Shown: positions 6,836-31,709 of the stretch, piece after piece
How positions within the stretch are numbered: the first letter of the stretch is position 1
Layout of the letters: each line of letters begins with the position of its first letter
Source of the DNA: Candidatus Latescibacterota bacterium
Lineage (GTDB): Bacteria; Latescibacterota; UBA2968; GCA-2709665
Direction of reading: 5' to 3'
Assembly (NCBI GenBank): GCA_965226795.1
Contig: CBDDDZ010000005.1
Location: forward strand, 1,952,001 to 2,016,000
Length of the DNA stretch: 64,000 bases
Position numbers and translations under genes: made by a program
Notes under the pieces: generated by a model
The model's database searches: none
Told to the model about the DNA's origin: nothing
The model's input: the letters and a program-made list of their open reading frames with translations, nothing else

Positions 6836-6928
<93 letters not shown>

Positions 6929-7219: not shown

Positions 7220-7770
7220 TCAGCGGGGCGGCAATGTCGACATCCGACCTCTCATTTGTTTAGCTACTCGGCTGAGGGGTACGGGGGGAAGAAGCGAGGT
7301 ATTTGCGCCGCAGGGCCACTCGACTTCCGTCCTACGAGTGTCGACGTTGACCAGTTTCCCATCGAAATGTGCAACGCTGACTGTGAACGACAAACAGCCG
7401 TCGATGCAAACGTGAGCGTAGCTCCTTTCGTCAAAGGCCGTATACACCATTACCGCACAACACATTCCTTTCGCCTTAAGATAATGGATAGTCGCGAAAA
7501 CAGTTTCGCCGTCCCACGCGACGTGAAACCACTCGAAAGGCGAATCTAGCAATTTCGGATCAAGGGAGTCTTCGCTATTGAGCAATGGGCGAACGACGTT
7601 TCTGTGAAGCAGACACTCCTTCGGAAGTACGGTCTGATCGTACTTGAGCTTATGCCTTTCGCTGGCCCTGTCTTGGCCTCCGTACGTACGGTACAAAGCA
7701 CCCAGCATTGAACCGTTAAACCAGCCCGATTTGTCGTTGATATATGGGTATCCATTTTGCCGGAACAATC
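7220..7770 (-). pseudogene. Probable 3' fragment of an unknown gene cut by the IS insertion
   Basis: Open frame runs up to the CTAG at the IS left end (7771); no recognisable motif. Confidence 0.35.
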
Positions 7771-9216: not shown

Positions 9217-9267
9217 TGATCAGTTCGAAGATCGTTGCGACTGTAATGCTGCCGGTCCAATCATTTT

Positions 9268-10587
9268 CTAACGCCGCAGGGATTTCGCTCCCCAATCCTC
9301 CTCAAAACAAAAAACCACGTAGTCGTCGTCCTCATCCACGCCACCTGCTTCAAAGGTCGCTCCTTGTATTGTTCTTCCTGCTGCAGGCCAAACGTGGATT
9401 AGGTTCGTGTTGTTACCGAAAGCCGCGAACTGAAAGTCGGTTGCATCCATTCGACCAGCCATATACTGCTGCAAGAGCCTTGACGATATCTTGATTCGCA
9501 TTGCACCCTCATGCATATCAACCCTTGTACCCTTATACCAGCCGCGGGCGATCGGACGAAACGCGCCTTGTCGGTGGATTTGCCTAACCTGATAGCCTTC
9601 GAAACGCGCGCGGGGGAGTTGAGCCGCCAGCATGTCCAGTCTCTCGTATTCTCCGTCAGCGACACCCTTTCTTGGGTCAAAGTAGGTTACGTTCCAGACC
9701 ACGTCTTGCCGTGGTCCCAAAACGACTCTCCTGTCACGAAAAGGCGAGAATACGCAAACGATGTCAATACCGCTAAGCTTTCTCAGCGCATGCCAGATGA
9801 TCTCCTCTCCACGGGTTTCGCGCCCGAGGTGGACCGCTTGTCCGATGTAGCGAAGCAACTGGCACCCTGCGTCGAAAAGAAAGACTACACGCAGGTGTCC
9901 ACTCCCCGCGTTCTTAATCTGCTTCGACTTCTTCTTGAGTGAATTAAAAATGGGGTTGTCCTCCAAATCATACGCCACCGGAGGCATTCTGCAAAAGACG
10001 GCGGGCTGTCTAGTCGGATGTTCGCGCCAAGCTATGAGCGCGTCTGTGCGACCGCGTGTGACGCGCAAGTTTTGCATGCGATCTGGACACTTCCGCCCGT
10101 TAAGCCATTCACGCAACTGCCCTTCAATATTGGCAGTCATCTGGAAATCCGGATCAACACAGCGGTCGCGCCGGAAGCGACCATCCCAATAGCTACGGTC
10201 CATAAACTCAAATGAAAGGTGGCGTCCGGCGTTCTTCGCAATGCGGTCCGCGCTCGAAGAGATAATGTTCGCCGTCCTTTCCATTGCATCTTGGCCCGAG
10301 AAACTGTCATCGGATAGGGCACGTACCTCCACAACAGCTCTGGCTGATGGGAAGAGATTTCTAGACAGTGCATCGGGTCGGCGGCCATTGCTGAGGACAG
10401 GTTCGAGACTCACATCTGCGACTTGTGCGATTGCCCAGAGCATCGACAACTCCGCCTCAGCTGCCAGCGCGTTGCGCGTGTTTGTGCTCTCCAATCTAGA
10501 AAGCAGATCATTGACTTTGGATGTGCTGGTGAGTAACGAGATATCGTCAATCATCGCGCTCAAACGTCGTCGCGCAAAGATAGGCAT
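9268..10587 (-). CDS. Hypothetical protein, possible PD-(D/E)xK-like nuclease fold
   Basis: Intact 439-aa ORF co-oriented behind gajB; E...RRPD-x12-VVEVR pattern. Confidence 0.6.
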   Translation of the reverse strand: MPIFARRRLSAMIDDISLLTSTSKVNDLLSRLESTNTRNALAAEAELSMLWAIAQVADVSLEPVLSNGRRPDALSRNLFPSARAVVEVRALSDDSFSGQDAMERTANIISSSADRIAKNAGRHLSFEFMDRSYWDGRFRRDRCVDPDFQMTANIEGQLREWLNGRKCPDRMQNLRVTRGRTDALIAWREHPTRQPAVFCRMPPVAYDLEDNPIFNSLKKKSKQIKNAGSGHLRVVFLFDAGCQLLRYIGQAVHLGRETRGEEIIWHALRKLSGIDIVCVFSPFRDRRVVLGPRQDVVWNVTYFDPRKGVADGEYERLDMLAAQLPRARFEGYQVRQIHRQGAFRPIARGWYKGTRVDMHEGAMRIKISSRLLQQYMAGRMDATDFQFAAFGNNTNLIHVWPAAGRTIQGATFEAGGVDEDDDYVVFCFEEDWGAKSLRR

Positions 10588-10838
10588 GGGCTGTGGTATT
10601 CCTTTCGTCGAGATTCGTCAAGCACCCGACATGGGCGAGCGCATCGTATCTGAACAGCGCCAGAATAGGGAGGCTGCGCATAGAGAGAATACGAGACCAC
10701 GTTGGGCGGCAAAATCTGGTCGGGCTGCTGTTGAAGGTTAGAGGTCCAATCCATCGGATGTGGTACTCGGGACGCGTTTTGTTCCTATCTTGCAGTCATT
10801 CAATCTACTGCTTTCAAACCATGTTTATGCTGTGTACT

Positions 10839-12725
10839 TCACATTCGGACCACCTCTTGGTCCTCGAACCAGCCAACACTGGAGATATGGCTGGCGACCT
10901 TGTCCGCCTCTTTCGTGTACACAATCACGGCGAGGCTCCGCTGAGCCCTGCTGCAAGTAACGTAGAAGAGACGTCGGGTTCTGTCTACGGATGTGTCCTT
11001 CCCTTCACGCCGGTTCTTTTCATCTGTGTTCGTCGGAGCTTTCGCCCCAAGCAACTTCTCATAGCTGAACATGAAACCGCGGGCTTCGTTGTCATCGAGG
11101 ATGACCATGACTCGCGGGAACTGAAGCCCTTTGATGCCTTGATGTGTTCCGAAAGGCGACCTGTCAGAGATGTACTCTGCATAGGCTTCGAACTGACTGA
11201 ACGGGACAGCAAGCGCTTCCCGCCAAGCATCGACCTCAGGATTCCTGTCGTCTTCCGCATCTGCGGGAACTGACTCTACCTCTTCTCCCTGCCCATCAGA
11301 GTCGGACAGGATGGGCGCAAATACATCGGGGATACCGAACAGGCCCTCGTGATCGACTACCTCGAGAATATCCAACAGGATGGGATCTGCGCCATCGTTC
11401 CACAGGGAGAACATGGACTCCACAGACCTCCCAGCCTTGCGGATTTCCTCTAATGAAGTCGTGCTTCCGCTCAGTCTTTCGGGAGACATGATCGGGGAGT
11501 AATCCTTTACGACATGAGCCACAGCAAACCTATCTTCGGATTGCATGGCTTGAACCAATGGAAGAACCTGCTGTGCGAAGAAAGCAATCCCATTCAAAGT
11601 CCCATCAAGCAGACCGGTCCTGAATTTGTCAATGCTGTAAAGCGACTCAAAGAAACGGTCGAAGCCACCCCTGCGCGCGGCCATGTGATGCTCAAGGGTA
11701 AGTACTTTGACCGCCTGTGCGCTCATCCATTCGTCATCGGAAGTGACCTCTGCCATTATCCTGGCCGCTTTCGCTTCGACTTTCAGTTTGTCTAAGTCGT
11801 CAACGTCATTGATTAGAAGCAGTCGCACAACCCCTTCTTGCGCGTCTTGTCTGGGCATCTGCTGTGCGCCGTCCGCTTCCGATCTGATCCGGTTGAGAAG
11901 CGTCACAATTCGTTTGGGACACCTGTGGTTGACGCCAAGCGCTGGTTTCTCCCAGCCTGCCGGGACAGCCTGCTCCAATCCGACTTTCCCGTCCGCGTAA
12001 ATGCGCTGCATCGTGTCACCGAACAGACACAGACTGAATTGGTCGGGATGCTCTGCCTGGAGGGCAAAGAATGCGTCAATCAGGTCTTTCTGAGTGTCCT
12101 GGCTTTCGTCGATGAGCAGGACTGGGTGCTTCCGAATCAGTATCTGACGCATGAGTGGCTTGTCGGAGAGAAACGCTGCTGTGATTGCTATGACCTCAGC
12201 GTGGTTCAGTGAGTTCTTGCCGATGTTTTCGCCGTTTGGGTTGTAGGTGAACTGCTTGATGACATCGAGATGCTGAAGTCGATTCCGCTTTGACTCAATT
12301 TGTACTTCTCGCTCACGGGCTGCCTTTGTTCCCGGCCTCCCGGACGCTTGCTTCTCGCGAAGTTCAGCGATTTCGTTGGACAAACGTAGGCGGAGACAAG
12401 CAGAGATGTCTTTGTGGTATGTGCGGATCTGCTCCCAAGCAAAACTGTGGATCGTGGACACGGCAAAGATGGGATCGAAATCTGTTCTGCGCCTAATCTC
12501 ATCACATGCGGCATTGGTGTAGGTTATGACAGCAACTTTCTGGCCCGACTGCCGGAACTGCGTGCCATAGCGGATCCGAAAGATGTCCATTGCCTCAATG
12601 ACCGCCCTTGTCTTGCCGGAGCCAGCGCCGGCATAGAGGAAGAAGCTCTTGGGCTTCTCCAGGTCGAGACACGCCGCAATCGTCTTTCTGAGTTCATCCC
12701 CTTGAGCGACTGCCTCAGGCATCAT
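10839..12725 (-). CDS. gajB: UvrD-like helicase, Gabija GajB-type
   Basis: AGAGSGKT, IDESQDT, FGDTMQRIY, THQGIKGLQF, RRLFYVTCSRA; directly after an OLD-family nuclease. Confidence 0.88.
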   Translation of the reverse strand: MMPEAVAQGDELRKTIAACLDLEKPKSFFLYAGAGSGKTRAVIEAMDIFRIRYGTQFRQSGQKVAVITYTNAACDEIRRRTDFDPIFAVSTIHSFAWEQIRTYHKDISACLRLRLSNEIAELREKQASGRPGTKAAREREVQIESKRNRLQHLDVIKQFTYNPNGENIGKNSLNHAEVIAITAAFLSDKPLMRQILIRKHPVLLIDESQDTQKDLIDAFFALQAEHPDQFSLCLFGDTMQRIYADGKVGLEQAVPAGWEKPALGVNHRCPKRIVTLLNRIRSEADGAQQMPRQDAQEGVVRLLLINDVDDLDKLKVEAKAARIMAEVTSDDEWMSAQAVKVLTLEHHMAARRGGFDRFFESLYSIDKFRTGLLDGTLNGIAFFAQQVLPLVQAMQSEDRFAVAHVVKDYSPIMSPERLSGSTTSLEEIRKAGRSVESMFSLWNDGADPILLDILEVVDHEGLFGIPDVFAPILSDSDGQGEEVESVPADAEDDRNPEVDAWREALAVPFSQFEAYAEYISDRSPFGTHQGIKGLQFPRVMVILDDNEARGFMFSYEKLLGAKAPTNTDEKNRREGKDTSVDRTRRLFYVTCSRAQRSLAVIVYTKEADKVASHISSVGWFEDQEVVRM

Positions 12726-14972
12726 TTACCTCTGCCACCTCTGTCGAGATAGCGTCAATCTTTCTCGCCTCAAGGTTTTTCTCAAGCCACTTGAGGCCAT
12801 CCGCGATGTAGTTTGGCGGTTCTATAGCTGGTCCGGCTCACTCAGGTAGAGTAGCTCCAAGGCCAACTCAGCCTTGCTGCCCTTCTCCAAGTCGGAAAAC
12901 ATATCGTTGCTGGCATCTTCGAGGGTGTCCTTTCTGAGAGCCGCTTGGAGCTTCTTCAATAGGCCTACCGGTTTTGCATACCCCCGGAAAAGCGCAAGAT
13001 TCGTCAAGGCCAGTGAATCCTCAAACGTATAGGGTATCGCCTCTCCTTCACTTTCACCCTCCTTGTATTCCACAGTGATAGGGCACTGGTATGCGACCCT
13101 GACGAGCCCATCCGCTGTCTGTTTCGCGTTATCCGGCAGATCGAGCAGATCATCAAGTGGTTCCTTCTTGGGCACCCAGTCCTTGAGTGTGGTGTTTCCT
13201 GTTCGGTAGCCTTTGCCGCGCTCCGGACGGGCCTTGGCAGTGTCAGTTTTGTGAATCGAGTCCAAGTCTGTAACGACCAGAGACAGAAGCCCAAGAGTAT
13301 CCAATAGTGGTTTCAAACGATGTGCATGGGCGCCCCCGATCTCAAGAAGCGAGATGTAGCTTTGGTCCAGCTTGGGGAACTTCTCCCGGACGAAGTGGGG
13401 AATCAACATGCGTTCAGCCGAACCCTCCACGAGGATGGCCGCATCGGCGAAAAAGAGATCACAATGGGTTGTCCGAAGATAACGAGTGGCAAACTTCGAG
13501 GTCTCATCGTGGTCGCCGAACGTCTGCGAGAGATTGATAACCGTTGCCGTGGGAATCTCCCCATTCTTCTTGGCTGGTTCCCGACGGAAGTAGCGCAGGC
13601 AAGAGAAGTCCAGTTCATGAGCAATATGTGATGAGTGAGTGCTGACGATCATCTGCGTGCTGAAGGAAGAATCCGCAGGCGCAGCGTGGCGCCGGAGCAC
13701 TTTGTAGGCTTTTTTGATGAATACCTGCTGAACCTGCGCGTGCAGATGAGCTTCGGGTTCTTCAACAAGTACGACGTGCAAGGGTTCAATAGCAGCACCC
13801 TTGGTGTCTTGACTCTCGGCCGCTTTCCCAATCCGCATCCATTCGTCCCTGAATCGGATCAGGTTGAATACCATCGAGATGAGGTTCTGGTAACCCAGTC
13901 CGTTGTATTTCTCGGGCAAGGACAGCGAGTCTGCTCCAGGCAGGTCGAACTGTACTGCGGCCTCGTGATCAAGGCTGTCGCGTGGATCGATCTTGCTTGT
14001 TATGGAGATTTTCGGGTCACTGAATCCCGGATAGTTGAGACCCTCAAGTTCTCCAATGGCAGGCTTGAAGCTCGTCTTTAACGTCTCGTTGAATACCGTT
14101 TTCGCCGCTTCGATCGCCTCCAGAGCCTCGATATCACTCGCCTCCGGGGCCTCTGATGGATTCAAGTGCTTGGAGAAGCAACGGCGCAGCTGAGTCGAAA
14201 GGCTTGCAAAGCCACTGTGTGACTCATCTTCTGTCTTGGGATCGGAAAAGCCTCTTTGGGCAGTGATTACGTCAATCTTGATGAGACCATCGAATGGATG
14301 CTTCTTGAGCGGATCGCTGCCGGGCGGAAGCGACTGAGGCTTGGCGATTCCCTGCACCGGATCTTGGCGCTGCGTGGGGTCGAGAATGTAGGACTGGACT
14401 TCGAACTGGCTGTGAAGCCGTCTGTCCAGAAAGTCCCTCATTGAGTTTGGCCATAGAGACGGCGGTGACTTTGCGTTGGTGGAAGCTAACTCGGCGGCAC
14501 GTGCCGATTTGTAAGCGCTTCGGAAATCCTTGTAAAGTTGCTCCATGTTCTTTGGTGCTAACACAAGCCTGACTCCCAGCAATTCCCTGGGTGTCCAATC
14601 CAGTGTAGGGAGAAGATGCGCGACACGGTGAAGGTCTTTTTCGTCGGCTGTGAGCCAAACATCGATGGAGGGTAGCAGGGGTAGCAATGCGTCAACGGCG
14701 AGTACTGCTTCTTCATTGTCGGCGGAAGCCACCCACTGTGCTCCGAGGTGATTAAAAGACGACCAGTTTGAAAGGGTGAAATCCGTGGTAGCAAAGGCTT
14801 TGCGGCGGCTCTGCTTGAGAAAGAGGATCAGAGCATCCATTGCGGATGTTTTGCCGCTATTGTTCGCGCCGACGAAGATCGTCTCCTGTTGCGCGATCTC
14901 GACGCGGCATGCCTTCAGCTTCCGGAAGTTCTGTATCTCAACAAAGGCAATGTGCACTCGATATTCTCCCAT
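12715..14972 (-). pseudogene. gajA: OLD-family ATPase/TOPRIM nuclease, Gabija GajA-type, frameshifted near the C-terminus
   Basis: GANNSGKT, EEPEAHLH, STHS, VEGSAE, TDLD motifs. The ORF stops at 12822; removing 2 nt (TA) at ~12823-12826 restores EPPNYIADGLKWLEK...DA* ending at 12715 and overlapping the gajB start. Confidence 0.82.
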
Positions 14973-15013
14973 GCGTGGCAGAGTGGTTCAGCCGTTGCAT
15001 GCTCCATATATCT

Positions 15014-17091
15014 TCAAAAAGCCACCAATCTCTCCCCGAATTCGACGCGGAGATTCCATTTCTTCGTCGTATTTAGGGCTGGCTCAAGGCAGACGAAGAT
15101 GCCTTCCATGCCTTTGAGTTTGGCGATTGTCTGTTCCTTCAGATCGTAGTCGAGGCAGACTGTCGCCTCCTTGTGAGAGTCCCACGCGCGGAAGACCACG
15201 TTCTCGGTGAAGTCGGCAAGGGCTTCCGTCTGAACATCGAGCATAAAGCCGTTCTTGAGGAGGACTTCTTGAAGAATTCCCTCCTGGTCGAACGTCATCA
15301 GAAACGCTGCTTCCTTCTCCCGGATATAGGCATCAAGGGCCTCCAAGTTCTCCTCATCCGTCTTCTCTGGATCTGGCACGAACTCGGTTCGGGGAAAGCG
15401 AGACTTGGCGAGTTTGTAGACCTTGAAACCTGGGCGATCGGCGGTGTTCTGCTGAGGGGCGATTCCGGGCAACCGTTGTTTGGCATCGCGGTCCGCCGTA
15501 TCTGCCGTTTCGTGCAACTGCGCGACAACCCGTCTGTTCCGCTCAATGGTAATGTCCGATATTCGGCGATAGCCCTTTTTGTATGCGGGAGTACCCTCGT
15601 CGATGATCTCTGGAATCTGCACGAGAATGAAGGTGCGCGCCCCGCCACTTTTCGCGTTGATTTCCATGACAGCCTGACCGGTCGGGCCTGAACCTGCGAA
15701 GAAGTCTAAGACAAGGTCGCCGGATGTTGTCACATACTCAATAAGACGTGCGAGAATCTCATGGTCTTTTGGATTGTCGAAAATCTTTCCGTCTAGGAGC
15801 TTGCGAAGGTACTTGATCGTCACTTGCGACTGTTTGTATAGAACACTGGGCATGACCTGGAGCCCCATCTCTTCCTCACTACCGTTTTCGTCCGCGTCTG
15901 GCTCGTCGTCGAGGAGTTCCTCCGGGACCGGGATCAAGTGCGCCTTTCGCATAGGTGGTTTTGTGTGGTCCTCACGAAACATGACGAGTCCGAGGTCGAT
16001 CTGGCGTTGCATTGACTCAGAAGTACTGAAACGCCAGCCACTCTCTGGTACCTCACATGATTTTCCCGTGTCAGGATGGATCACGTCATAGCGGGGCCCG
16101 CCTCCGCCAGGCCAAGAAATGTCTCTGTCACGCCACGGTCCCCACTTGTCGATTTGTTTATACCTCGAGAGTTTCTTCGACGGATGCTTTGTTGGGAGAT
16201 CCTTGTACCATTGACGAAGCTCCGTCTCCATGGCCCCATAGTCCTCTCCGTGGACTTCCTTGAGCTCCAGCCACTTTTTGCAGATTTCTTTCGCCCCCGG
16301 CTTCTGCTCACGCCAGACTGTCTTCAAGTCTTTCAAATGCTGGAGGTCGCGAGCGTAGCAGACAACATAGTCGTGCCCCAAACTGAACAGCTTTGCATCG
16401 TTCTTCCGGGTCTTCTCCCATGTGAGCTGAGCGATGAAATTTTCCTCGCCGAAGGCCTCGTCGCACAGCCTGCGCAGGTGATGCGCCTCATTGTCATCGA
16501 TCGATATTAAGATGACGCCATCGGGAAGCAGGAGCTGTCGGGCAAGGAGCAAGCGGGGATAGAGCATGTTCAGCCAGTTGGAATGAAAACGGCCGTCACT
16601 CTTCGTGTTGGTGTCAACTTTCACGCCATCTGCAGTTACCCCAATGTGTTCCCAGTATGTTCCTCTGTCTTCCTTCCATGTGTCGGAATATACGAAGTCC
16701 TTGTCCTTGTTGTACGGCGGATCAATATAGATGCACTTGACCCGGTTGCGGTAGGAGGCGAGCAGACATTTCAAGACTTCAAGATTTTCTCCTTCAATGA
16801 TGGCGTTCCCCTCGGCAAGCCCTGGATTCACAGAGCGCTCGTGATTGTACTCCAAAGATGCGAGCGTCGGCGTGAAGGCGTTGCGCTTCGCGTCGGCCTT
16901 CCCAAACCAACGGAATTCAAAGCGCTCCGACTCCGGCACCAAGTCGGGATCGATGAGGCGTTTCAGCTCGTCCGGGTTGAGAGAGCCCCATCGTTGGTAA
17001 ATAGATCCGGCATAAGCGCTCGGAGTTGCTCCAGACGTTCCTGGTTCACATCCGGCGTGGCCGGCATTCGGTCCATAATGGCCTTGTTCAT
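15014..17091 (-). pseudogene. mod: Type III RM Mod adenine methyltransferase with a 5' frameshift
   Basis: IYIDPPYN and DFFAGSG motifs in beta order. N-terminus MNKAIMDRMPATPDVNQERLEQLRALMPDLFTNDG starts at 17091 (ATGA overlap with the YhcG gene) and is out of frame with the body at GAGAGAG 16979-16985. Confidence 0.85.
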
Positions 17092-18284
17092 AACTTGCCT
17101 TCTTCGTTCTCGGAGCGCCATTTCAGAAGCAGTCTGCGGAGCTCTTCCCTGGGCGGGAGTTCCAGCTTGTAACGACTGGCGAAAATACGCTCGTTGCCCT
17201 TGTCGAGCACGTATTCAACGACGGCGTCGTTCTTGTCGGTGCAGAGGATCAAGCCAATCGTAGGGTTGTCCTCCCGGGTGCATACTTCACGATCAAAATA
17301 GTGAACGTACATCTGCATCTGGCCGATGTCGCCATGAGTGAGCTTTTCTGTTTTCAAGTCGATGATCACATAGCACTTGAGGCGCACGTGATAGAAGACC
17401 AGGTCCGCATAGAAATGGTCTCCATCCAGCGTGAGTCGTTTCTGTCGGGCCACGAAGGCAAATCCAGCCCCTAATTCCAGCAGAAACTCCTGCATGTGGG
17501 TCGTAAGGGCCGCCTCCAGATCGCTTTCGAGCAACCGATGCGATTCAGGAAGTCCGAGAAACTCCAGGGCATAAGGGTCTTTGATGATGTCGATGGGGTG
17601 TTCGGTCGCCTGTCCTTCATTGGCGTGTTGCAGCACACCGTCCTTGTCGCGGCTCTTGAGCAGGCGTTCAAAGAGCAGGGTGTTGATCTGTCGTTCAAGC
17701 TGCCGCTTGTTCCAGTGGTTTCGAGCGGTTTGCTGTTCATAGAACTGCCGCGCTTCGTCGTTCTCGACGCGCATCAGCGCGCGATAATGCGACCAGCTCA
17801 GATCGGGATGGAAGCCGGTTGCGGATTCAACGCCCGTTGGGTGCTGTTTTGGTGTCAATTCTCCGCCCGGTGGGTGGGGATTTCCGCTCTTGCCTAATTC
17901 TCTACCCACTGGGGAGAGAATCTTTTGCTGCCTGAATTCTCTCCCCGACGGGGAAAGAATTGCCGCGGCGCGACCAGTGTACGTTTGATAGAACTTCCGC
18001 ATATTCCACAACGATACGGTGGAGTAGCCCTTGCCATAGCGTCCCGTCAGCCGCCTCGACAGATCCTCAATTACGGCCTTGCCGTAGTCAGCCCGTTTCT
18101 GTCCCTTCTGCTCTTCCTCAACGATTTCACGTCCGATCAGCCAATATGCCACCACCATCGCGCTGTTGACCGTTCGGGCGACATGACTGCGTGCTTCCTC
18201 GAGAATGTCGACAATCCGACCGAATAGCGCGGTATCGTCTGGAGCCGGGGTATTCGGGATCTTCTCCCGAACTTTGTCAGGCAT
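17088..18284 (-). CDS. YhcG/DUF1016 PD-(D/E)xK nuclease family protein
   Basis: YWLIGREIV, LSWSHY, KDPYALEFL, FLLELGAGFAFVARQ, IIDLK, GQMQMYV; internal linker has short repeats (ILSPSGREF / ILSPVGREL). Confidence 0.93.
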   Translation of the reverse strand: MPDKVREKIPNTPAPDDTALFGRIVDILEEARSHVARTVNSAMVVAYWLIGREIVEEEQKGQKRADYGKAVIEDLSRRLTGRYGKGYSTVSLWNMRKFYQTYTGRAAAILSPSGREFRQQKILSPVGRELGKSGNPHPPGGELTPKQHPTGVESATGFHPDLSWSHYRALMRVENDEARQFYEQQTARNHWNKRQLERQINTLLFERLLKSRDKDGVLQHANEGQATEHPIDIIKDPYALEFLGLPESHRLLESDLEAALTTHMQEFLLELGAGFAFVARQKRLTLDGDHFYADLVFYHVRLKCYVIIDLKTEKLTHGDIGQMQMYVHYFDREVCTREDNPTIGLILCTDKNDAVVEYVLDKGNERIFASRYKLELPPREELRRLLLKWRSENEEGKL

Positions 18285-18933
18285 GCGTGACTCCATTGGC
18301 ACGAGTCTTGAAGACGGAGTACTCCTTGACGGGCGCGTCGTAGTTGACCTGCGCATCGACCCCCAGCGCATGGAAGTGCTTCATGGCGCACTTGATCTTG
18401 TAGACCTCGCTCGCACGAAGTGCCTTCTTGTCCGCAAGCTCGTTCGTGCCCTTTGTTTCAATAACGAAGTAGAACTCGGTCTCTGCGCCGTTGCGCAGGC
18501 GCTTCCGTCGAAGAACAACGCCGAAATCAGGATTGTAGGGGCCGATGGGGGTTGGAATCTGGTAGAAGGCCGGGAGCTTGAGAAAGCAAACGACTTCGTC
18601 GTCGTTGTCCGCAGACCCGGCGAAGTCCCGCTCAATATTGCTGTCGAATACAACACGGTCGTATAGGCCCCGGTTCGGCGTTTCGATGGTGTCCGCGTAG
18701 GTCACGATACTCGGCTCAAGCCGCGAGATGTCGAATTCCTCGCCGCTGGGCGCATAGGTCAAGCCGCGAAGCAGTTCATCCAGTTCAAATTCCCGGATTC
18801 GCGATGACGCTTCGTGAATGAAGCGGGTGGGGTTTGCGGCGATGGCGGCACGGTTGGTTACGTCGCGCAGGATTCGGATCACTGTCGGATAGGCGAGTGT
18901 CGTTCCCTCGCTGATTTCCTCGACCAGATCCAC
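18277..18933 (-). pseudogene. res: C-terminal endonuclease fragment of a type III Res subunit
   Basis: FDSNIE, KLPAFYQIPTPIGPYNPDF, FVIETKG and KIKCAMKHF motifs; helicase domains absent, truncated next to the tRNA copy. Confidence 0.85.
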
Positions 18934-19024
18934 AGCCCCGAACGTGGCACGCAGTCGGCGGCGTTCTCTGTGTCCATGCCCTCCTGAATAATCGTATTAT
19001 AAACAGTAACTTATATAAAATAAG

Positions 19025-19115
19025 TGGCGGATAGGGTGGGATTCGAACCCACGGTACCTGTGAGGGTACACCGGTTTTCGAGACCGGCCTGTTCAACCAG
19101 CTCCAGCACCTCTCC
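19025..19115 (-). tRNA. Second tRNA-Ser(CGA) copy with an acceptor-stem mismatch
   Basis: Full 91-nt copy of 31619-31709 with two differences: CCTATCC for CCTCTCC in the acceptor stem and one variable-arm change. Confidence 0.85.
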
Positions 19116-19190
19116 GCTCGAATACAGGGGCACGCCAGGTTTGATTGCGACTTCCGCCATCCGGCCACCGCAATCAATTCCATCGCTAAG

Positions 19191-19356
19191 TTACGGGTTT
19201 TTCTGGCGCAATTTTTGGAAGAACTGCTTCAGAATCTCTGAACAGGGCGCTTCGAGCACGCCTCGACGAACGTCGATTCGATGGTTGAGCCTCGGGTCAT
19301 CGACGACGTTCCGAAGCGAACCGCAGGCCCCGTTTTCGGGTCGTCGCCGCCGGATC
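19191..19356 (-). pseudogene. tadA: 3' fragment of a divergent tadA allele
   Basis: Aligns to 31799-31964 and encodes CGSLRNVVDDPRLNHRIDVRRGVLEAPCSEILKQFFQKLRQKNP*; indels at its 5' edge. Confidence 0.9.
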
Positions 19357-19424
19357 TCTATTTAGTTTGATCCAGGAACCGCTGCCGGCCAGTTCACCGC
19401 TGCACAGCCGCCGCTCCCCATCCG

Positions 19425-22400
19425 TTAACCCTTCAGCATGGTCTTCACGTAACTGTCCTTGTCCTCTTCCTGAAAAAGGACGTGCCGCCTTTGCATCTCG
19501 CTCTTCTTCATGCCCCACTGTCTGCGCATCGTCGCGGACGGAGTATTCGAGACGATGAAGGATTGCAAGTGCACGGCCGGATCGCCAAGGCGTTGTTCGA
19601 TCTCCTTGATGGTCTCGTGGAACTGGATCTTGAGATCGCCTGGCCCGAGATTCCGGATCCCCTTGGGGTCCACAAAGATGACGTGCTGCTGACCCCCTGC
19701 GAGCAACCACAAGATGAAGTCGGGGTGGAAGTTGCCGGCTTCGAAGAAGCCCACACCGCGGCCCCTGCTGAGGTTTCGTAGCAGATAGAGTTCGCGGGTA
19801 GCGAAGAAGTCCGTATTACCGTCGTGGAACGCCTTCAGATCCTCAACGAACTCGCGCTCGCCCTTGTTCAGCGGTGCGGGGGTGATCTCGACGATTTTTG
19901 TGTCCAGATAGAGCAGCGGCTGGTAGAGGTGCTTGCCGAACCAGATGGCTTTCATGCCCTGGAATTCCCAAGGCTTCAGCTCACCCTTCCGGATGGCGGC
20001 TTTGAGCTCCTCGAGCTTGGCGACGATCTCTTCCTGCGACTTGTCGATCAGGATGCGGTAGTAACCCTCGTCCGGCGAATCCTTCACGCCGAGGAAGTTC
20101 GGGTCGTCGTCTTCAAGGTAACGGTATTCGAGGTGAGGAAGCTCCCACTCGCGCTTTCGGAAGGTGTAGTAGCGCTCGGTGTACTTCTTGAGCAGCGCAA
20201 CGGCGATCTCCTCCCAGAGGCGCACCTTTTCGTAGGAATCACCTACAAGTTCCTCGCGGGGGATCTGCAAGCGATACCAGCTCCGGTCTCCGAGCAGGGC
20301 CTCGACTCCCTGCCGTGTGAGATTCAGGTTGTACCAGCCGCGCTCGGCCTTGAATCGCTCCAGATCGAAGCAAATGCGGTCGAGATCGAGGAAGGCCGCA
20401 TGGCGGGGTGTCAGGTGGGTCTCGTTCGGCGCGGCATCGGCATCGCCGCCAACCAGACCGCCCGACTTCATCGCCTGGATTTTCGGATACCAGTTGAGCA
20501 CCACCTGGTTTTCCTGGAGGTAGACGGTGCTCCGATCACCGGTGGGGTCCGGCGGCCCGACGGTCGGGATGGGCGCGAGCTTGCGAAACGCGTCTCCGAA
20601 CTCGGTGCTTACGCCGTTGATCGTCTTCTTGAGCCGGATCGTCTTGAGCTTCTGCGTCCCAAGGTCCTTGATGACTGGCAGCAAAAACTCGATGCGGTCG
20701 TCGTTGGTGGGTAGTCCCTCCTCTTCGAGGAAGTCCCGGAACTGCGCCATGTAGTCGGCCTGGATGCCGAAGATGCCGAGCGTCTCCAGGACTGCGATGT
20801 GTTTGGGCCGCTCGAAACCATCGGGTAGATCCGTCTTGCCGCTACGCTTGAGGCTCAGGTCGTAGCCCTTGAGCCGAACGCCGCGTCCGAAGAGCTGGAT
20901 GATCTGCGCGCCTTCCCCCTTGCCCACGTTCATCAGGCCCATCGTCGAAACGCGCCAACTGCTCCAACCCTCTGTGAACTTCTTCGAGCCGATCAGCAGG
21001 TTCACCGTGGAGTACGGCTGGTTGATCTCGTGGAAGAGCGATCCCGAGAACTCGCTCTCGTACCTGGCAAGGCCCTTCTCGTCACAGAGTTTCACCAGTT
21101 TGACGTCGTCGCCCACGTTGATGACGCCGAAGGGTTCGTTCTCGGCGCCCAGCCGAAGGGCCACTTCGCCGGTCACGCCCTTCAGGTTCTCCACATATAG
21201 CTGGCCGCCACCGGGGGCATTGAAGACCGTCGCCAACGTCTCGTCGAAGACCTGCTCCGGCGAGAGTCCACAGGTATTGAGATAGGCGAAGCGCTTGGCG
21301 AACAGGTTCTTGCCCGTTGCGGTGACAAGGCCCTGATTGAGAACCCGGTGGATGCGCTGGATGCTGCCGGCGCGTTCGGCTACGTAACCGGCCAGGAACT
21401 GCAATATTTCCACGATGTCCGACGCGTCCTTCTTCGCGAGCGTCGCCGTCACGCTCCCGCCCACGAAAATCCACAGGGGCTTCTCGATGTTGAACGGCCG
21501 AAAGGAGCCTCCTTGCTCAAGGTAGAGCCTCTGTTGCTGGAAGAAAGAGAGCAGGCAGGCCACGAGATACAGGTCCAGGTGGTTCTGTTGTGTTCCCTGG
21601 TCGAGATTGAGGATCTGGTAGTCCTTGCCGAAGCCGTCCGCGTAGAAATAGCGGTACGAGTAGTCACACAGCGTGCTCTTGGCGTACAGCTCGGTGAGTC
21701 TGGGGCTGCCCTTGACCGCTTGCCCGAAGGTGGCGGAGTACTCGAAGGAGAATCCTTTTTCGCACAGCGCATTGCGAAAACGCATCCACGCGCCTTCTTC
21801 TCCTCCGCTGGCGCCGCGGTGCCCTTCATCCACCAGCACCAGGTTGTTCCCCTCGAAGGCGTCGATGGCGATGGTCCTGTCACCCATCTCGTCGCGCAGC
21901 CGGGTCACTTCGATGATCTCGACCGCCTGCCCGCTGAACAGCCCGCGGCCGTCCTTGTTGAACAGCTCTGCGTCGATGCCGGCCGCCGCGAACTCGCGCA
22001 GATGCTGCTGCGAGAGCCCTTCGTTGGGCGTAAGCAGGAGGATGTGGTTCAGCTCGCGCCGCCGGCCATGCCGGTTCAGTGCGTGCCGGTACTGCAGGAT
22101 GTTGGCGTGCATCAGCAGCGTCTTGCCGCTGCCGGTGGCCATCCAGAAGGCCAGCTTGTTGAGCTGCGGCCAAGCCTCGGCGGCTTCGTCGAACGCGGCA
22201 ATCTGGTCGGCCTCGGCCTTGTTCGCGTTGCAGGCGGCCACCTGCTTGTTCAGATCCCCGAGCAGCGCCTTGGGATCACGGAAGTAGCGGTCGAGATAAA
22301 TCTCGCTGAAGAGCAGCGTCAGGTACTGGAAGTACTTCCAGACGATCGGCTCCTCGCCACGGGTGATCCGCCGTTCGTTCAACCGTTGCGTGTGCCTGAC

Positions 22401-22654
22401 TATGTTCTGGTCGTACTCCAGCAGCAGCTCGGTAGGCAGCCGCGTCAGGTTGAAAAGCTGTGCCGTGAGCGCGTGGTGGAAGTGGTGGATGTTGTTCTCG
22501 TCGAGCCCTTCCAGCGCCTCGTTGCGCAGATGCTCGGCCAAGTCCTCGAAACGCTCCACGTTGAAGAGCGAGAGCAGCCACTGGTTGAGCACCAGCTTGT
22601 GGGCGAACGCCACCTGCGGTTTCTTGGACGTGGCTTTAGCCCTCGTCTTCGCCA

Positions 22655-22658
<4 letters not shown>
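19425..22658 (-). CDS. res: Type III-like restriction subunit (SF2 helicase plus C-terminal PD-(D/E)xK nuclease)
   Basis: [34 protein letters not shown]...FVDPKG; start overlaps the mod stop. Confidence 0.88.
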
Positions 22659-25954
<3,296 letters not shown>

Positions 25955-25979
25955 AAGATGTCTTCCTTGTTGACGAAAT

Positions 25980-28211
25980 TCATATGCGGGCGAGCACCTG
26001 TTCGAACCACAGGATGGCCGCCTCGCCCTCTTTTCGCGTAACCTCGTCGACAGATCGACTGTGGCGTATGCCGTTTCGGAGTTCTGCCAACTGGCCGAAC
26101 TTCGCAGACAGCGTCTCCTTATTCACGAATCTCTTCTCGAAATCGTGCCAGAGACTCTTGCTGAGGATGGTATCCTGTAACTCACGCAGATCACAGTACT
26201 CAAGACGTCGGCTCAGTTGCCTGTACTGATCGAGTTCGATGTTGGCGTTCTTCCTTGCAGCAGTCTGGATGCGTTCATCAGCTTTCTGAAGCACGTGCGG
26301 CGGAAGCCGCCCAGCATCGTCTTCGAGTGTTGCGATCACTTGTTCGCGGACAGCGAGCTCAATACCCTCGACCCGTTCGTCCAACTCGCGTAACTGGGGC
26401 GACAGATCGATCCTCTCCTTGATCAGCAGGTTCTCGATCGCCTCCAATAACGTACGCTGGCGCTCGGCAATGAAGGCCTCGTAGTCGTCGGAAGTGAACG
26501 GCTTGCGCAACAGTACGTCCAGGGCCGCCGGTGAGATGAAGTGCGACTCGAGCACGCTGCGCATGGCGTTCGCTCCACTCTGCTCGATCAGCTCCGGCAA
26601 ATATTCGTTCGGGAACCGGTCGCGAATGACCTGTCGATTCGTCTCGGCAGTGAGCGGTGTGCGGTTCAGAATGGAGTGGATCAATCCATCAATTCCGAGT
26701 TCTCTCGCCATCGATGCCGGAATGATGTGATGATCGTCCAGATCATCGTGTTGAGGCACATTTCCGCTCATCCAGTCACGCGCGCCTTGAATAACCAACA
26801 GATTGAAGATGCCGTTATAGACCGACGTGCCGCGCCTGACTTCACGGCGAAGCTCTAAACTCCTGAAGCGCATTCCAAATTCCTGGATCAGCCCAGGTTC
26901 GCTCGCGTCGTCATCCATCCAGGCCTTCAGGTCCAGGAAGTCCCGGGCCGCGGTCGACTCGACAGAACCCGAGTAGCGGTTCAGGAATACCGAGGCCCAG
27001 TACCAATGCCGAATCTTCCGTTGCGCTTGAAGCCTTTGGTTGGGGGGCAAGCCTCTGATGTGGTGTTGGATGGCAGAAAACGCCGGGATGATCGAAACGT
27101 AAGGGAGATAGTTCGAAGAGATCGCCCCGAACTCCTGAGGATGCCGTAAGAGCTTGATCGCACTCTCAATTGCATCGACGGCATCGTTCCAACGATGCGT
27201 GAATGCCGTCGTGTCAGGAACGAGGACTTCCTTGTGGCGTGTCCCATCGGGATCTCGAATCGGTTTCTCCTGTCCGGGAAGAAGGAAGTAGAGGTACTTT
27301 GGCGAGCAGTACCCTTGCCTGAGAATCGACATCACCTGCAAAATGTAGACGTTCATCTTGTTCGAGTCGACGAACTCGAGGCGGGCGGCAGCGTCACGCC
27401 ACATCTGCTTCAACTGCACGCCCTTCGGTCTGAGCAACGCGTTGATGAGGTCGAAGGTGTCGAGCTGAACACCTTTGCTGTTGATTTGCGTGAAAATATC
27501 ACAGACCTTGTCGATACCAAGTTGCTGATCGAGTTCAATATACGAAATCTGGTACTGATCTGTCAGGCCCTTGACGTGCTCGCCAAACGTAGAGCCATTT
27601 TCGGCATACAGAACTGCTTGCTCATATTGGCTCTCCTTGCCGGCTTGCTTGGCCTCGTCCGCAGCCTCGTTCCAGTGCTTTTTGTATCCGTCCACCCACT
27701 CATAGAACGACCACCCGCCGTCGCCGACGACAGCCAACGGAAAGATATGCTCCGCATACTGCTGCTCACGATTGGTGATGAGTTGTGTCCAGCGCTTCGA
27801 CCAATCGTATTCGAACGCGTTGTCGTACTCCTCCGCCATGAAACGGTCGATGCGGACGAAGTAATAGTACCGATTCACGCGTGTGGGCAGTGGGATGTCA
27901 GGCGCCAGAAACGCGTAGTACATGGCGGTAAGTCGCTGCTGTCCGTCCAGCACGATGTACTCGGGTTTTTTTGAACCCTCGTAGCCGTAGACTGGTTCGC
28001 AGGACAGTGCGGCAAAGTTCTCATCCTTGCCCTTCCAGAGCAGCAGGCTCCCAATGTAGTAGTCGAGGAATATCGAGCGCATGAGGTCGCGAACGTCCCA
28101 TGGTTTCCACTCGAACTCGCGCTGAAAGTCGGGAATGACGAAGCGCCCCTCCCGCAAGTGTCCAATTAGCGTGTTTAGGCTGACGTGGTCAGGTTTCTGT
28201 GCATCTTTCAT
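25980..28211 (-). CDS. GmrSD-like DUF262 + HNH (DUF1524-like) protein with C-terminal Swt1-like HEPN domain
   Basis: [17 protein letters not shown] and FTQINSKG (DUF262); DDHHIIP...SILNRTPL...N (HNH); [10 protein letters not shown] (RxxxxH). Confidence 0.85.
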
Positions 28212-28227
28212 ATGATCGTTCTCCAGT

Positions 28228-31146
28228 TCACGTCACCGCCCAGCGGATGGTGAAGAGTGCCTCCGCCTCTATTCGCTGTGCCAGCCGGCGCTCCAGCGAG
28301 TCGATGAGTTGGTCGCGCTTCTCGATGATCTGGTCCTCGGCCTTGAAGATCTCCTGGCGCTGGCGGCGTTGCTGGCGCTCGAGCTTCTGGATCTTCTCCT
28401 GAATCTCGTGCTGCTCGGCGAGCGTGGCCGCCTGCCGCGCCTGACGGCGCAAAGCCTTGATCTGCTCCTTGGTGTCCAGGAGCGCCTTCTCCGCGGAGAG
28501 CACCATGTCGTCAGCCCACCTTTCGAGCTTCTCGCGCGCCTCGTTGAAATGCGTGTTGTTCTGCTCCAGCGAGCGCGTGACCGTGGCCCGCGTGTGGCGC
28601 TGGGAGTCGCCGTCGAGACGTTGCGTCACCGCAGTCGAGATCGTGCCTGCGCCGTCGCCGTCATCGGCGATTCGGCCTGCACAACCGAACAGCTTCTCCA
28701 TCGTCTCCTGGTCGAGCGGCACTCCGGCCTCATCGAAACCGGAGAAAAGCAGGTACTCCTCCCGCTCATAGGAGTCGATCATAAGGCGAGTCAGCCTCAG
28801 ATAACCGGCTTTCCCGCGCAGTGCCTCGATCACGTGGAGACGCGTCGGATGGCTGGTCACGTCGAAGACGATTCGCTCGGGCGGGGTGGAAAGCGCTTTT
28901 GCACCGTCCACGACATGCTCGCCGAGCGGGTGCGCCAAGCGATACAGGAAGACACCCTGGGTCTCGTCGCCGTCCTCATCGGCGCCTGTTCCAGACTTGG
29001 GATGTGACTTCGAGATCAAGTGGTATCGCCCTTTGAGGATCTCGGGACGGGGCGGGAGCTCCAGATCGAAGGCCAGCGCCGCGTCGTCGAACCGTGCCCG
29101 CCCATCGAGCATGAAGCGCGTGAGCGACCAGAACCGCCTACCCACGCGGTCGAGCTGGGCCTGGGCGTCGGCAAGCTGGAGGCGGAGCCGCTGGTGCACG
29201 TCCTCGTCGAAGTGCTCGAAGAGCGTGCGACGGGTGTCGTCGAGCCGCGTTCGGATCTGCTCGTCCATCTCGGCTTGCAGCGTGCGGAAGGCGGCGTCGA
29301 TCTCTTCGGGTGTGCGGCACTGCTGGTAGATGCCCAGGATGCGCTTTTCGAAATCGACACCCGATTCGATGCTGCCGAGCACCTCGTCCGAAGCGCCGAA
29401 AACACCGTTGAAGAGGCTGAACTTCTCGGTTAGAAGCTCCAGGACGCGGCGGTCGGCGTCGTTGCGTTCATTCAGGAAGTTGATCACGACCACGTCGTGC
29501 TTCTGTCCGTAGCGGTGGCACCGGCCGATGCGCTGCTCGATGCGCTGCGGGTTCCAGGGAAGGTCGTAGTTCACGACGAGCGAGCAGAACTGGAGGTTGA
29601 TGCCTTCCGCCGCCGCCTCGGTAGCGAGCAGGATAATTGCCTCGTCCCGGAAGTGCTCGATGAGCGCCGTGCGTACGTCCACCGCCCGCGAGCCTGAGGC
29701 ACGGCCGGTGTCGCGGTTCTCTTCTGCCCAGCGCTGGTAGATCGCGCTGGCCTCCGGCCCACCATTCGTGCCGTTGAAGAGGACGACCTGCCCCCGGTAG
29801 CCATGCGATTCGAGGAAGCCCTTCAGGTACTCCTGGGTCCGACGCGACTCGGTGAAGATCAGCGCCTTGCGCGCGGCGCCCGTCGTGACCATCTGCTCGA
29901 AACCGATCTCCAGCGCCTTGAGCAATGCCTGGGTCTTGGTGTCGATGCCGATGGCGCGCGCCCAAGTGGCGAGACGCTGGAGGACGCCGATCTCCTCTCG
30001 CAGCTTCTGCCGGTCTACGGCGACCGGATGCGCGGGGGGCTGGTCAGCGTCCTCGCTCTCCACGAGGATCTCGTCGAGCAGATCGTCCTCGATTTCCTCG
30101 GCCTCGATGAGTTGCTCCGGGAACTCGGGATCGCTGCTCGCCTGTTCGTCATGCAGCGTCTCGAGGCGTGCCCTCAACGTGTCGAGTGTGGCAGCAATGG
30201 CCTGCGACGACGAGGCGAGCAACTTCCGTAGAATCAAGGCTGTGAGATGCCTCTGCCTCTGGGGGAGTGCGTAACTGTCCTCTCGCTGAAGAAAGCCGGA
30301 AACCGCCTCGTAAAGCGCGTGTTCCTCGTCCGTCGGCTTGAATGGCCGCGTGATCGGGCGCCGCTCCGTGTACCGGATGTACTCCATCACTTCGTTGCGG
30401 AGGGTACGCTTACAAAAGACCGAAAGCCGCTGCTGTAGGGCTTCCAGGTTGCTGCCTGCACTGGCGTACTGAGACCGGAACGAGTTGACATCGCCAAAGA
30501 GACGCTCGTCGATGAGCGTCGAGAGGCCGTACAGCTCAAGGAGTGAGTTCTGCAGCGGCGTCGCGGTCAGAAGCAGTTTGCGACAGTCCTCCGTGGCCCA
30601 GCGGATTCCCTGACCAACCTTGTTCCTCGGACGGTACGCGTTGCGCAGCTTGTGGGCTTCGTCGATGACGACGAGGTCCCAGGCAATCGTCTTGAGTTCC
30701 TCACGCAGGCGGTTCGCATAGTGGTGCGACATAACGACGACGGCATTTGCGCCAAGCGGTGTTTGGCCGCTTCGCCTGGCTTCGCGATAGACCTTCGCGT
30801 CGAGCACCTGCACGGGCAGATTGAACTTCTCCTCCAACTCCAGCGCCCACTGCTTGCGGATGGAAGCCGGGCAGATCACCAGCAGACGGCGCTTGCGTTC
30901 CGCCCAGAACTGACACAGCACAATTCCCGCCTCGATCGTCTTCCCGAGGCCGACCTCGTCGGCCAGGATAACGCCCTTGGAGAGGGGCGATTGCAGGGCG
31001 AAGAGGGCTGCCTCGATCTGATGCGGGTTCAGGTCGACGGCCGCGTCGAATAGCGCCATCGACAGGCGGTCCATTCCGCTGGCGGCACGACGCGTCAGAT
31101 CGTGAGCGAAATACTTCGCGTGGTGAGGGGTGAGCGTCAACTGCAT
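28228..31146 (-). CDS. SNF2/RapA-family helicase
   Basis: LADEVGLGKT, IDEAH, LTATPLQN, EGINLQ, DLPWNPQRIEQRIGRCHR; C-terminal coiled coil. Confidence 0.92.
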   Translation of the reverse strand: MQLTLTPHHAKYFAHDLTRRAASGMDRLSMALFDAAVDLNPHQIEAALFALQSPLSKGVILADEVGLGKTIEAGIVLCQFWAERKRRLLVICPASIRKQWALELEEKFNLPVQVLDAKVYREARRSGQTPLGANAVVVMSHHYANRLREELKTIAWDLVVIDEAHKLRNAYRPRNKVGQGIRWATEDCRKLLLTATPLQNSLLELYGLSTLIDERLFGDVNSFRSQYASAGSNLEALQQRLSVFCKRTLRNEVMEYIRYTERRPITRPFKPTDEEHALYEAVSGFLQREDSYALPQRQRHLTALILRKLLASSSQAIAATLDTLRARLETLHDEQASSDPEFPEQLIEAEEIEDDLLDEILVESEDADQPPAHPVAVDRQKLREEIGVLQRLATWARAIGIDTKTQALLKALEIGFEQMVTTGAARKALIFTESRRTQEYLKGFLESHGYRGQVVLFNGTNGGPEASAIYQRWAEENRDTGRASGSRAVDVRTALIEHFRDEAIILLATEAAAEGINLQFCSLVVNYDLPWNPQRIEQRIGRCHRYGQKHDVVVINFLNERNDADRRVLELLTEKFSLFNGVFGASDEVLGSIESGVDFEKRILGIYQQCRTPEEIDAAFRTLQAEMDEQIRTRLDDTRRTLFEHFDEDVHQRLRLQLADAQAQLDRVGRRFWSLTRFMLDGRARFDDAALAFDLELPPRPEILKGRYHLISKSHPKSGTGADEDGDETQGVFLYRLAHPLGEHVVDGAKALSTPPERIVFDVTSHPTRLHVIEALRGKAGYLRLTRLMIDSYEREEYLLFSGFDEAGVPLDQETMEKLFGCAGRIADDGDGAGTISTAVTQRLDGDSQRHTRATVTRSLEQNNTHFNEAREKLERWADDMVLSAEKALLDTKEQIKALRRQARQAATLAEQHEIQEKIQKLERQQRRQRQEIFKAEDQIIEKRDQLIDSLERRLAQRIEAEALFTIRWAVT

Positions 31147-31256
31147 GGCTGCACCCAGACGAAGTTGGCGTAGGGCGGTTTGGCGGGCATGTAGTCGGCC
31201 CTTATGCCGGCACGGCTGCGGTCGTTGTCGAACGTGTCCGCGTGCGCGATCTCGCC

Positions 31257-31618: not shown

Positions 31619-31709
<91 letters not shown>

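Follow-up and report, generated by a model that had tools for sequence, protein, structure and literature searches.

A tadA–tRNA-Ser(CGA) anchor duplicated between two integrase-free defence islands in a genome of Candidatus Latescibacterota

Introduction

Arrays of orphan modules, such as the effector-immunity arrays of the type VI secretion system of Vibrio cholerae and the orphan 3' ends of Rhs and contact-dependent inhibition genes, have been ascribed to homology-facilitated illegitimate recombination (PMC5361080). For defence islands, transfer by homologous recombination between their flanks has been proposed, a process that normally leaves no scar; in the core defence hotspots of Pseudomonas aeruginosa, which contain many mobile-element genes, this proposal was left open (PMC10250203). 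In this work, we analyse a stretch of 64,000 nucleotides (hereafter the window) from a genome of Candidatus Latescibacterota bacterium (assembly GCA_965226795.1, contig CBDDDZ010000005.1, positions 1,952,001 to 2,016,000), in which a complete tRNA-Ser(CGA) gene, an intergenic spacer and the 3' end of the deaminase gene tadA are present twice, once as part of the intact locus and once between two defence islands. The second, inner block is a variation on recombination scars already known, and it helps to address how defence islands build up without an integrase.

As in the orphan-module arrays, cargo was added here beside a conserved anchor, the displaced 3' part was kept downstream, modules are stacked and no recombinase is involved. 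The mechanism proposed for those arrays, a one-sided homology anchor combined with an illegitimate join, is also of the kind considered below (PMC5361080), and for both it is an inferred one. The differences lie in the duplicated unit, which in the window is a housekeeping flank (the tail of an essential gene, a spacer and a whole tRNA gene), and in the cargo, which consists of whole defence islands. The layout likewise recalls that of e14 and phage 21 in icd, in which the inserted DNA supplies a working 3' end and the native fragment, icdC, lies at the far end, with differences that are mostly silent or conservative (PMC13626634); the two tadA tails compared here are separated by 12 synonymous and five non-synonymous changes. 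Unlike e14, which has an integrase and an att core, the locus yielded neither, and the block adds an intergenic spacer and a complete tRNA gene.

Conserved core borders that include a non-coding RNA gene, variable defence content and a wide range of sizes are common to this locus and the P. aeruginosa hotspots (PMC10250203), but no integrases are found here and the duplicated anchor, with its shuffled alleles, is a physical scar. Similarly to Islander-type tRNA islands and the ssrA islands of Dehalococcoides, the islands in the window lie directly against the 3' end of a tRNA gene and can be stacked. In those islands, however, the repeats are partial 3' ends of RNA genes made by an integrase (PMC3146451), whereas the repeat described here comprises a full tRNA gene, its 5' spacer and part of the upstream gene, with no integrase. 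A search of the literature found no report of a full tRNA gene and an upstream gene tail duplicated between integrase-free defence islands.

Results

Two copies of the anchor

ARAGORN detected two complete tRNA-Ser(CGA) genes, both on the minus strand. Read along that strand, the window presents the outer tadA, spacer and tRNA, then island B (19357-31618), the inner tadA fragment (tadA'), spacer and tRNA, then island A and finally tRNA-Ser(GGA). The components of both copies are given below in positions of the window; G000 stands for the window's own genome, the other G numbers for related genomes, and X numbers for public sequencing runs.

19025..19115, minus strand: inner tRNA-Ser(CGA) (ARAGORN, Rfam)
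19116..19190, minus strand: inner spacer, L-type, homologous to spacers of the genus's other two clades
19191..19356, minus strand: tadA 3' fragment, tadA' (alignment, translation)
19357..19424, no strand: junction segment, also present in G012 and in X15, X17 and X2 contigs
31619..31709, minus strand: outer tRNA-Ser(CGA), fully paired (ARAGORN, Rfam)
31710..31798, minus strand: outer spacer, type III, common only to G014
31799..32275, minus strand: full tadA (NCBIfam), with a promoter-like site upstream at 32349-32321

The original prediction, made from the letters of the window, stated that 19025-19356 repeats the order of tRNA-Ser(CGA), spacer and tadA 3' end seen at 31619-31964, the spacer being unrelated, and both ARAGORN and the alignment bear this out. 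The tRNA genes score 51.3 bits (inner) and 56.8 bits (outer) with the Rfam tRNA model, for which the gathering score is 29, and differ at two positions, 19031 and 19059. The spacers, 75 nt long in the inner copy and 89 nt in the outer, are unalignable. Homology resumes past them, where the tadA parts are 87-89% identical, and ends at about 19356 and 31964. Searched against the whole genome, the inner block matched the outer one with E = 1.7e-84 and 81% identity over query positions 1-328.

The outer tadA is full-length (158 amino acids), reaches 168 bits with the NCBIfam TadA equivalog model (cut-off 150) and is the sole complete tadA of the genome, the other tblastn matches being two distant deaminase paralogues. 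The inner tadA' consists of the last ~53 codons and the stop only, its product ending in ...QKLRQKNP. The inner spacer, the outer spacer region and the junction segment are all unique in the genome, and no other tRNA of the genome has a duplicated 5' flank. A third tRNA-Ser(cga), called by ARAGORN at 10558-10629 of contig C4 (72 nt), was rejected; it lies inside a coding repeat, is devoid of the long variable arm and is unlike the real genes.

The inner tail as an allele of a working gene

Over 52 comparable codons, the inner and outer tadA tails show 17 nucleotide differences, distributed 3/2/12 among the codon positions (binomial p = 0.002 for the third-position excess), and the resulting ratio of non-synonymous to synonymous substitution (dN/dS) is 0.11. 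The counts of synonymous and non-synonymous changes are close to those of the original prediction, which left out the last three residues and arrived at about ten of the former and one of the latter (T/K). Substitutions random with respect to codon position, which it had named as evidence against a working gene, were not what the alignment revealed. The window carries a 1-nt deletion in tadA' near 19327, where a run of G has four letters instead of five. Because contigs of runs X15, X16, X17 and X2 have the additional base, this frameshift is either strain-specific or an assembly (homopolymer) error.

We retrieved 35 TadA sequences, namely the top 21 matches of a protein search, 13 more members of the 90% cluster of the window protein and the query itself. 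The ...QKNP end was present in ten of the 35, and seven full-length proteins have a tail identical to the 46 in-frame residues of the inner copy. Fifteen of the 23 cluster members are listed; among these, nine are L-type, four type I-like, one truncated and one type III, the last being the window's own protein. Since the spacers are unrelated, dN/dS is 0.11 and relatives have full-length TadA ending in QKLRQKNP, the inner tail has its origin in a functional tadA and is no recent duplicate made locally from the outer one, in agreement with the proposal that it had evolved as a functional tadA elsewhere. The search for a donor thus recovered the expected protein. The other part of the expected donor, a full tadA with the inner (L-type) spacer, was absent from the 15 genomes of the genus and from 22 genomes of the family, and scans of metagenomes for this spacer, using an exact degenerate pattern and a looser gapped pattern reaching the tRNA, gave no match. 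In another relative, the TadA sequence breaks off at about residue 125 (protein P0135) and an unrelated end follows, which suggests another rearrangement inside the tadA tail.

Type I spacers belong to nine genomes and to G012's outer copy, type II spacers to G006, G009 and G013, and type III spacers to G014 and the outer copy of G000. The L-type is a fourth form, present in the inner copies of G000 and G012, and has motifs in common with types I and II and none with type III. The type III form has the look of a derived replacement whose beginning lies three codons ahead of the tadA stop.

A tree of an 800-nt flank segment has the topology ((G000,G012),G014), with support of 100/97 and 100/100. 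Between G000 and G012, identity is 94-100% upstream, falls to 78% in the tadA tail and to 37% in the spacer, and recovers to 100% in the tRNA; between G000 and G014 it is 83-92% throughout, in the flank and in the outer allele alike. Three of six central TadA bodies, among the listed members of the window protein's cluster, are paired with two different tail classes. The inner copies themselves differ between G000 and G012 at 18 sites (4/3/11 by codon position, p = 0.014-0.04), and at five sites the inner copy of G012 matches the working gene of G014, and that of G000 its own outer copy. Three allele classes of the tadA 3' end and spacer occur, shuffled against gene bodies that are otherwise identical. 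The drop in identity, the swapping of tails among bodies and the third-position bias between inner copies identify the last ~50 codons of tadA and the spacer as a recombination zone. Once the junction had formed, sequence was apparently traded between working alleles and both anchor copies.

Authenticity of the inner block and its junction

The same order of anchors and islands is seen in G012, which belongs to another species and whose genome is a single contig. Its homology to the window extends from 19022 through the inner tRNA, spacer, tadA', junction and res with 90% identity, rises to 95% in drmD and also includes the outer tRNA flank. At about 19352-19358, which is 68 nt past the stop codon of res, the homology to tadA comes to a sudden end, and no att-like repeat is found there.

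Contigs assembled from the public runs gave a similar picture. Those of X15 and X17 cover 18494-19089 and 19088-19476 and are ~99.4% like the window; one X17 contig is exact over 19346-19458 and one X1 contig over 18899-19049. An X2 contig, ~97% like the window, covers 19027-19411 and has a different sequence left of the tRNA. Position 19357, the start of the junction segment, is crossed by contigs of X15, X16 and X17 (~99.4%) and of X2 (~97%); run X1 has no contig cover over 19333-19424. The tadA'/res-end junction is therefore common to at least three lineages, namely G000, G012 and a metagenome lineage. These contigs are too short to cross the 91-nt tRNA repeat, and the evidence for the order of the islands comes from the window's assembly and from G012.

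A chimeric assembly of two strains, which the original prediction itself named as the way in which it could fail, has a practically negligible probability. What can be said for it is that no single short-read contig spans the whole inner tRNA, the contigs breaking at 19088/19089. Yet the same order and the same junction recur in one piece in G012, and contigs of several independent runs cross both the border between island A and the tRNA and the stretch from tRNA and spacer through tadA' to island B. Apparent joints of 19053/19057 to 31620 were also noticed; they have 20-22 letters on the shorter side, are out of register with the repeat, and were taken as cross-mapping between the tRNAs and not as a deletion form.

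Absence of site-specific integration machinery

Pfam searches of 17 open reading frames (ORFs) in the 24.7 kb of G000 and of 12 in the 29.4 kb of G012 found no integrase. A six-frame search of the whole genome returned four matches to the tyrosine recombinase family PF00589, the nearest more than 119 kb away, and none to the serine recombinase family PF00239; for a genome of 5.4 Mb, G000 has unusually few site-specific recombinases. A 20-nt pattern of the tRNA end, with up to three mismatches allowed, matched full tRNA copies only (0.00 chance matches expected), and a repeat search found neither partial tRNA copies of the att kind nor a core repeat common to both ends. Among the hallmarks of integrase-borne tRNA islands, foreign DNA at the tRNA 3' end is present at this locus, while the integrase and the partial repeat of the tRNA 3' end are not. 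The lack of partial tRNA copies and of an integrase upholds the earlier view that this is not a normal att duplication.

A defence hotspot throughout the genus

The tRNA-Ser(CGA)-tadA pair is present in all 14 other genomes of the genus, and 13 of these have tRNA-Ser(GGA) on that contig as well. In the 12 single-copy genomes, the two tRNA genes are 0.46 to 13.8 kb apart, the distance being 0.46-0.47 kb in G004, G007, G008 and G011 and largest in G009. A second anchor copy was found only in G000 and G012 among the 15 genomes, and these two have the largest hotspot loads of the genus, 24.7 and 29.4 kb. In every genome, and in all 17 aligned copies, variable DNA begins right after the CCA end of the tRNA, which itself hardly varies within the genus. 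Bounded by tRNA-Ser(GGA) and tRNA-Ser(CGA)-tadA, the locus is a variable defence hotspot throughout the genus: as in core defence hotspots, the borders are the same in relatives and the content varies, with matches to Gabija, type III restriction-modification and DrmD-like proteins. Different clades have modules in common; the YhcG module beside the inner tRNA of G000 is 86% identical to the island of G003, despite the different spacer types.

Flank homology on the left side ends at 7107-7157 in the comparisons with G012, G014, G006 and G009, and at 7093-7094 in those with the empty-site genomes. The sequence of the empty site, about 325 nt between the two tRNAs of these genomes, was sought in the window and is absent beyond 7094. 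Beyond tRNA-Ser(GGA), the minus strand continues with tRNA-Ala, the signal recognition particle (SRP) RNA and dnaX; the SRP RNA is of the bacterial large type (181.6 bits, 5912-6180) and lies just left of the hotspot's tRNA pair.

Content of the islands

The features of the hotspot outside the two anchor copies are the following, the genes of both islands having been assigned with Pfam, PADLOC and NCBIfam.

6837..6928, minus strand: tRNA-Ser(GGA), left conserved border of the hotspot (ARAGORN); the conserved flank runs to ~7094-7157
7158..19024, minus strand: island A (left island)
7873-9216, plus strand: island A, insertion sequence (IS) transposase
9268-10587, minus strand: island A, ORF of 439 amino acids adjoining Gabija, without match in Pfam, PADLOC or NCBIfam
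10839-12725, minus strand: island A, GajB (PADLOC 799 bits; Pfam UvrD)
12822-14972, minus strand: island A, GajA (PADLOC 899 bits; Pfam AAA_15 and OLD-like TOPRIM)
15014-16942, minus strand: island A, type III Mod (PADLOC MTase_III 462 bits)
17088-18371, minus strand: island A, YhcG/PDC-S02 nuclease
18277-18933, minus strand: island A, N-terminally truncated type III Res fragment (PADLOC REase_III, aligned to 777-975 of 989)
19425..31146, minus strand: genes of island B (right island)
19425-22658, minus strand: island B, type III-like Res (PADLOC REase_III 734 bits)
22655-25954, minus strand: island B, Mod (PADLOC MTase_III 644 bits)
25980-28211, minus strand: island B, GmrSD/DUF262 protein (Pfam)
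28228-31146, minus strand: island B, DrmD-like SNF2 helicase (PADLOC DrmD 662 bits; NCBIfam DrmD_b 672 bits, below the cut-off of 950)
31147..31618, no strand: non-coding, tRNA-proximal end of island B, without family match, conserved in G012

Adjacent GajA and GajB genes identify a Gabija system in island A. Island B does not qualify as DISARM; its helicase stays below the DrmD_b cut-off, no matches to DrmA, DrmB or DrmC were found, and the neighbours of the helicase are type III-like Mod and Res and a GmrSD-like protein. A cassette composed of a DrmD-like gene, Mod, either YhcG or GmrSD, and Res recurs in 74 loci from many phyla, with Res proteins 55-92% identical. In the 73 other loci, nucleotide homology of the cassette stops at the gene ends and no transposon-like conserved termini were found. 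The cassette is highly mobile and its link with the tadA anchor is specific to this lineage, because among the 74 loci tadA and tRNA-Ser(CGA) flank only the one that matches G012. In the search for island B elsewhere, G015 and a second locus of G014 showed only C-terminal res fragments. Truncated type III res fragments lie directly behind same-strand tRNA genes both in the window, at 18277-18933 behind the inner tRNA-Ser, and in G014, at 10443-11339 of locus L050 behind tRNA-Glu (300 amino acids); they look like scars of earlier overwriting of islands from the tRNA side.

Some mobile sequences were noted along the way. The IS of island A (window 7769-9214) is 97.5% identical to two inverted copies in the left island of G012, where they bracket a GmrSD gene, and the island-B Mod gene of G012 is interrupted by another IS (DDE_Tnp_1_4). 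Farther away in the window, at 59409-59579, there is an element of ~170 nt with terminal inverted repeats, resembling a miniature inverted-repeat transposable element, with seven BLAST matches in the genome (itself included) and dozens in G012-G014.

Function and decay of the inner block

Reading the inner tRNA of G000 against its expected fold, each of its private substitutions breaks a base pair, one in the acceptor stem (G4:A69) and the other at the top pair of the variable arm. The two letters also appear in contig sequence (X15 record 9, X1 record 1). The gene scores 5.5 bits below its outer counterpart, and the inner tRNA of G012 is still identical to the outer one. The inner tRNA is redundant and probably starting to decay in G000. 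With its first ~105 codons missing, tadA' cannot encode a deaminase, and it is probably without function. A promoter scan found no sigma-70-like site in either spacer, the only promoter-like site being that upstream of tadA, and any transcription of the inner tRNA would need read-through from island B. The lasting effect of the inner block is structural, in that it is a second recombination anchor, and its two carrier genomes hold two islands instead of one.

Discussion

The data presented here agree with the central claim of the original prediction, according to which the inner block is a working allele from elsewhere and not an att repeat, but they do not support the specific history proposed with it, which may have to be reversed. 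That history had the left defence module arriving together with its flank. The junction conserved in G000, G012 and the metagenome lineage is, on the contrary, with the right island (B), and the DNA to the left differs in all three.

The anchor duplication likely arose once. Our favoured reading, to which we give somewhat less than an even chance, is that island B came in together with a foreign tadA 3' end, spacer and tRNA. Such incoming DNA would have recombined by homology into the tadA side, and its other end would have joined illegitimately inside the resident tadA, so that the resident tail, spacer and tRNA were pushed inward and the cargo was not replaced. An event of this kind, with one-sided homology and a single illegitimate join, would be a case of homology-facilitated illegitimate recombination. 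Afterwards, both anchor copies would have kept recombining with alleles of sister lineages, and the extra anchor would have let islands accumulate.

A resident inner copy and an imported outer 3' end seem at least as likely as the opposite direction, because the conserved junction is the one between tadA' and island B, the inner type is the commonest and the outer copies are of other types. The L-type is the majority working allele of the complex, with an ancestral-looking spacer homologous to those of other clades, and both carriers of island B have non-majority types at the outer copy. The truncated res fragments found behind tRNAs, moreover, show that joins on the tRNA side have repeatedly cut resident islands. 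The left neighbour of the inner tRNA differs among G000, G012 and the X2 lineage; these differing left sides alone do not decide the direction, since the left side is the active end of the hotspot.

Several observations weigh against the favoured reading. Its direction is unproven, and the mirror model, that of the original prediction, yields the same final structure. The type III allele at the outer copy of G000 is shared with G014 at the same identity as the flank (83-92%), which fits vertical descent of the outer copy and hence a foreign inner one. As the outer copies of G000 and G012 belong to different classes, a single origin needs at least one subsequent replacement. The 18 third-position-biased sites between the inner copies are not what simple neutral decay of a displaced copy would give, and later recombination into the inner copy must be assumed.

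The mirror model is, in our view, unlikely though by no means far-fetched. It takes island B as native behind its own tadA-tRNA and the inner copy as foreign: DNA from a sister lineage, running from tadA' at codon ~106 through an L-type spacer, a tRNA and the donor's island to the left core flank, would have recombined by homology in that flank, with its tadA end joined illegitimately 68 nt past res. Sister strains with full-length L-type TadA are possible donors, an island directly after a tRNA is the natural arrangement, and the flank-level resemblance between the outer alleles of G000 and G014 is expected if the outer copy is native. The left islands, however, differ in all three lineages that share the junction and none is tied to the flank; the L-type, as the majority type in the complex, could equally well be the resident one; and the right end of the incoming DNA would have had usable homology (tadA' and the tRNA), which should favour plain replacement of island B. 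A local tandem duplication, from tadA codon ~106 to 68 nt past res in an ancestor with a native L-type tail, strikes us as improbable. The junction does look like the join of a tandem duplication, tadA tails are often replaced in the complex and the L-type is the majority type, but the left copy of island B would then have to be exchanged for other cargo and the outer tails overwritten by imported alleles. More events are required (the duplication, a 12-kb copy lost or exchanged, and tails replaced twice), no trace of another island B is found left of the inner tRNA, where the res fragment belongs to another family, and large tandem duplications are unstable.

It is also conceivable, if quite improbable, that island B between its two anchor copies acts as a mobile unit without recombinase, composed of tRNA, island B, tadA' and spacer. 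Recombination between the repeats would release or copy the unit, and RecA-dependent entry of the ends-in or Campbell type at the tadA-tRNA locus of a relative would recreate the same structure. The pairing of one and the same junction with outer alleles that differ (type III in G000, a type I mosaic in G012) and with varying left neighbours, the greater divergence between G000 and G012 of the part from res to the inner copy (~90%) than of the adjacent core flank and drmD (95%), and the near invariance of the tRNA across the genus are consistent with such a unit. No circular or deleted form was seen in the contigs, for which the 91-nt repeat is too long to be resolved, and the single joint across the repeats extended for only 20 letters on one of its sides; vertical descent with short-patch recombination explains the same data. 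Finally, a decayed element of the e14/icd kind could have brought a replacement tail, spacer and tRNA to tadA codon ~106 and later lost its integrase, leaving the displaced native tail at its far end. The order of icd, e14 and icdC, with a C-terminal pseudogene at the far end and mostly conservative differences, corresponds to this layout (PMC13626634), and the L-type is the majority native type. We nevertheless consider such an element very improbable, as neither the 24.7 kb of G000 nor the 29.4 kb of G012 contains an integrase, no core repeat is common to both ends, the homology of the cassette in 73 other loci stops at gene ends with neither conserved termini nor tadA or tRNA-Ser(CGA), and G014, which is devoid of island B, has the outer (type III) allele.

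The locus bears on how defence islands that lack mobility genes travel and accumulate. Transfer through homologous flanks normally erases its own traces, and the locus described here supplies a scar of that kind, with a duplicated anchor, a datable junction, shuffled alleles of the tail of an essential gene and the largest island loads of the genus. Population genomes or long reads from the same samples make the idea of flank transfer testable at this locus. It shows, moreover, that the tail of a housekeeping gene can be rewritten as a by-product of traffic in defence islands. A more speculative proposition, which we regard as distinctly unlikely, is that duplication of the anchor turns a hotspot in which islands only replace one another into an additive one, and island B into a mobile cassette free of recombinase. 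If this were true, RecA alone would loop out island B and re-insert it at the tadA-tRNA-Ser(CGA) locus of any relative, dragging alleles of the tadA 3' end along.

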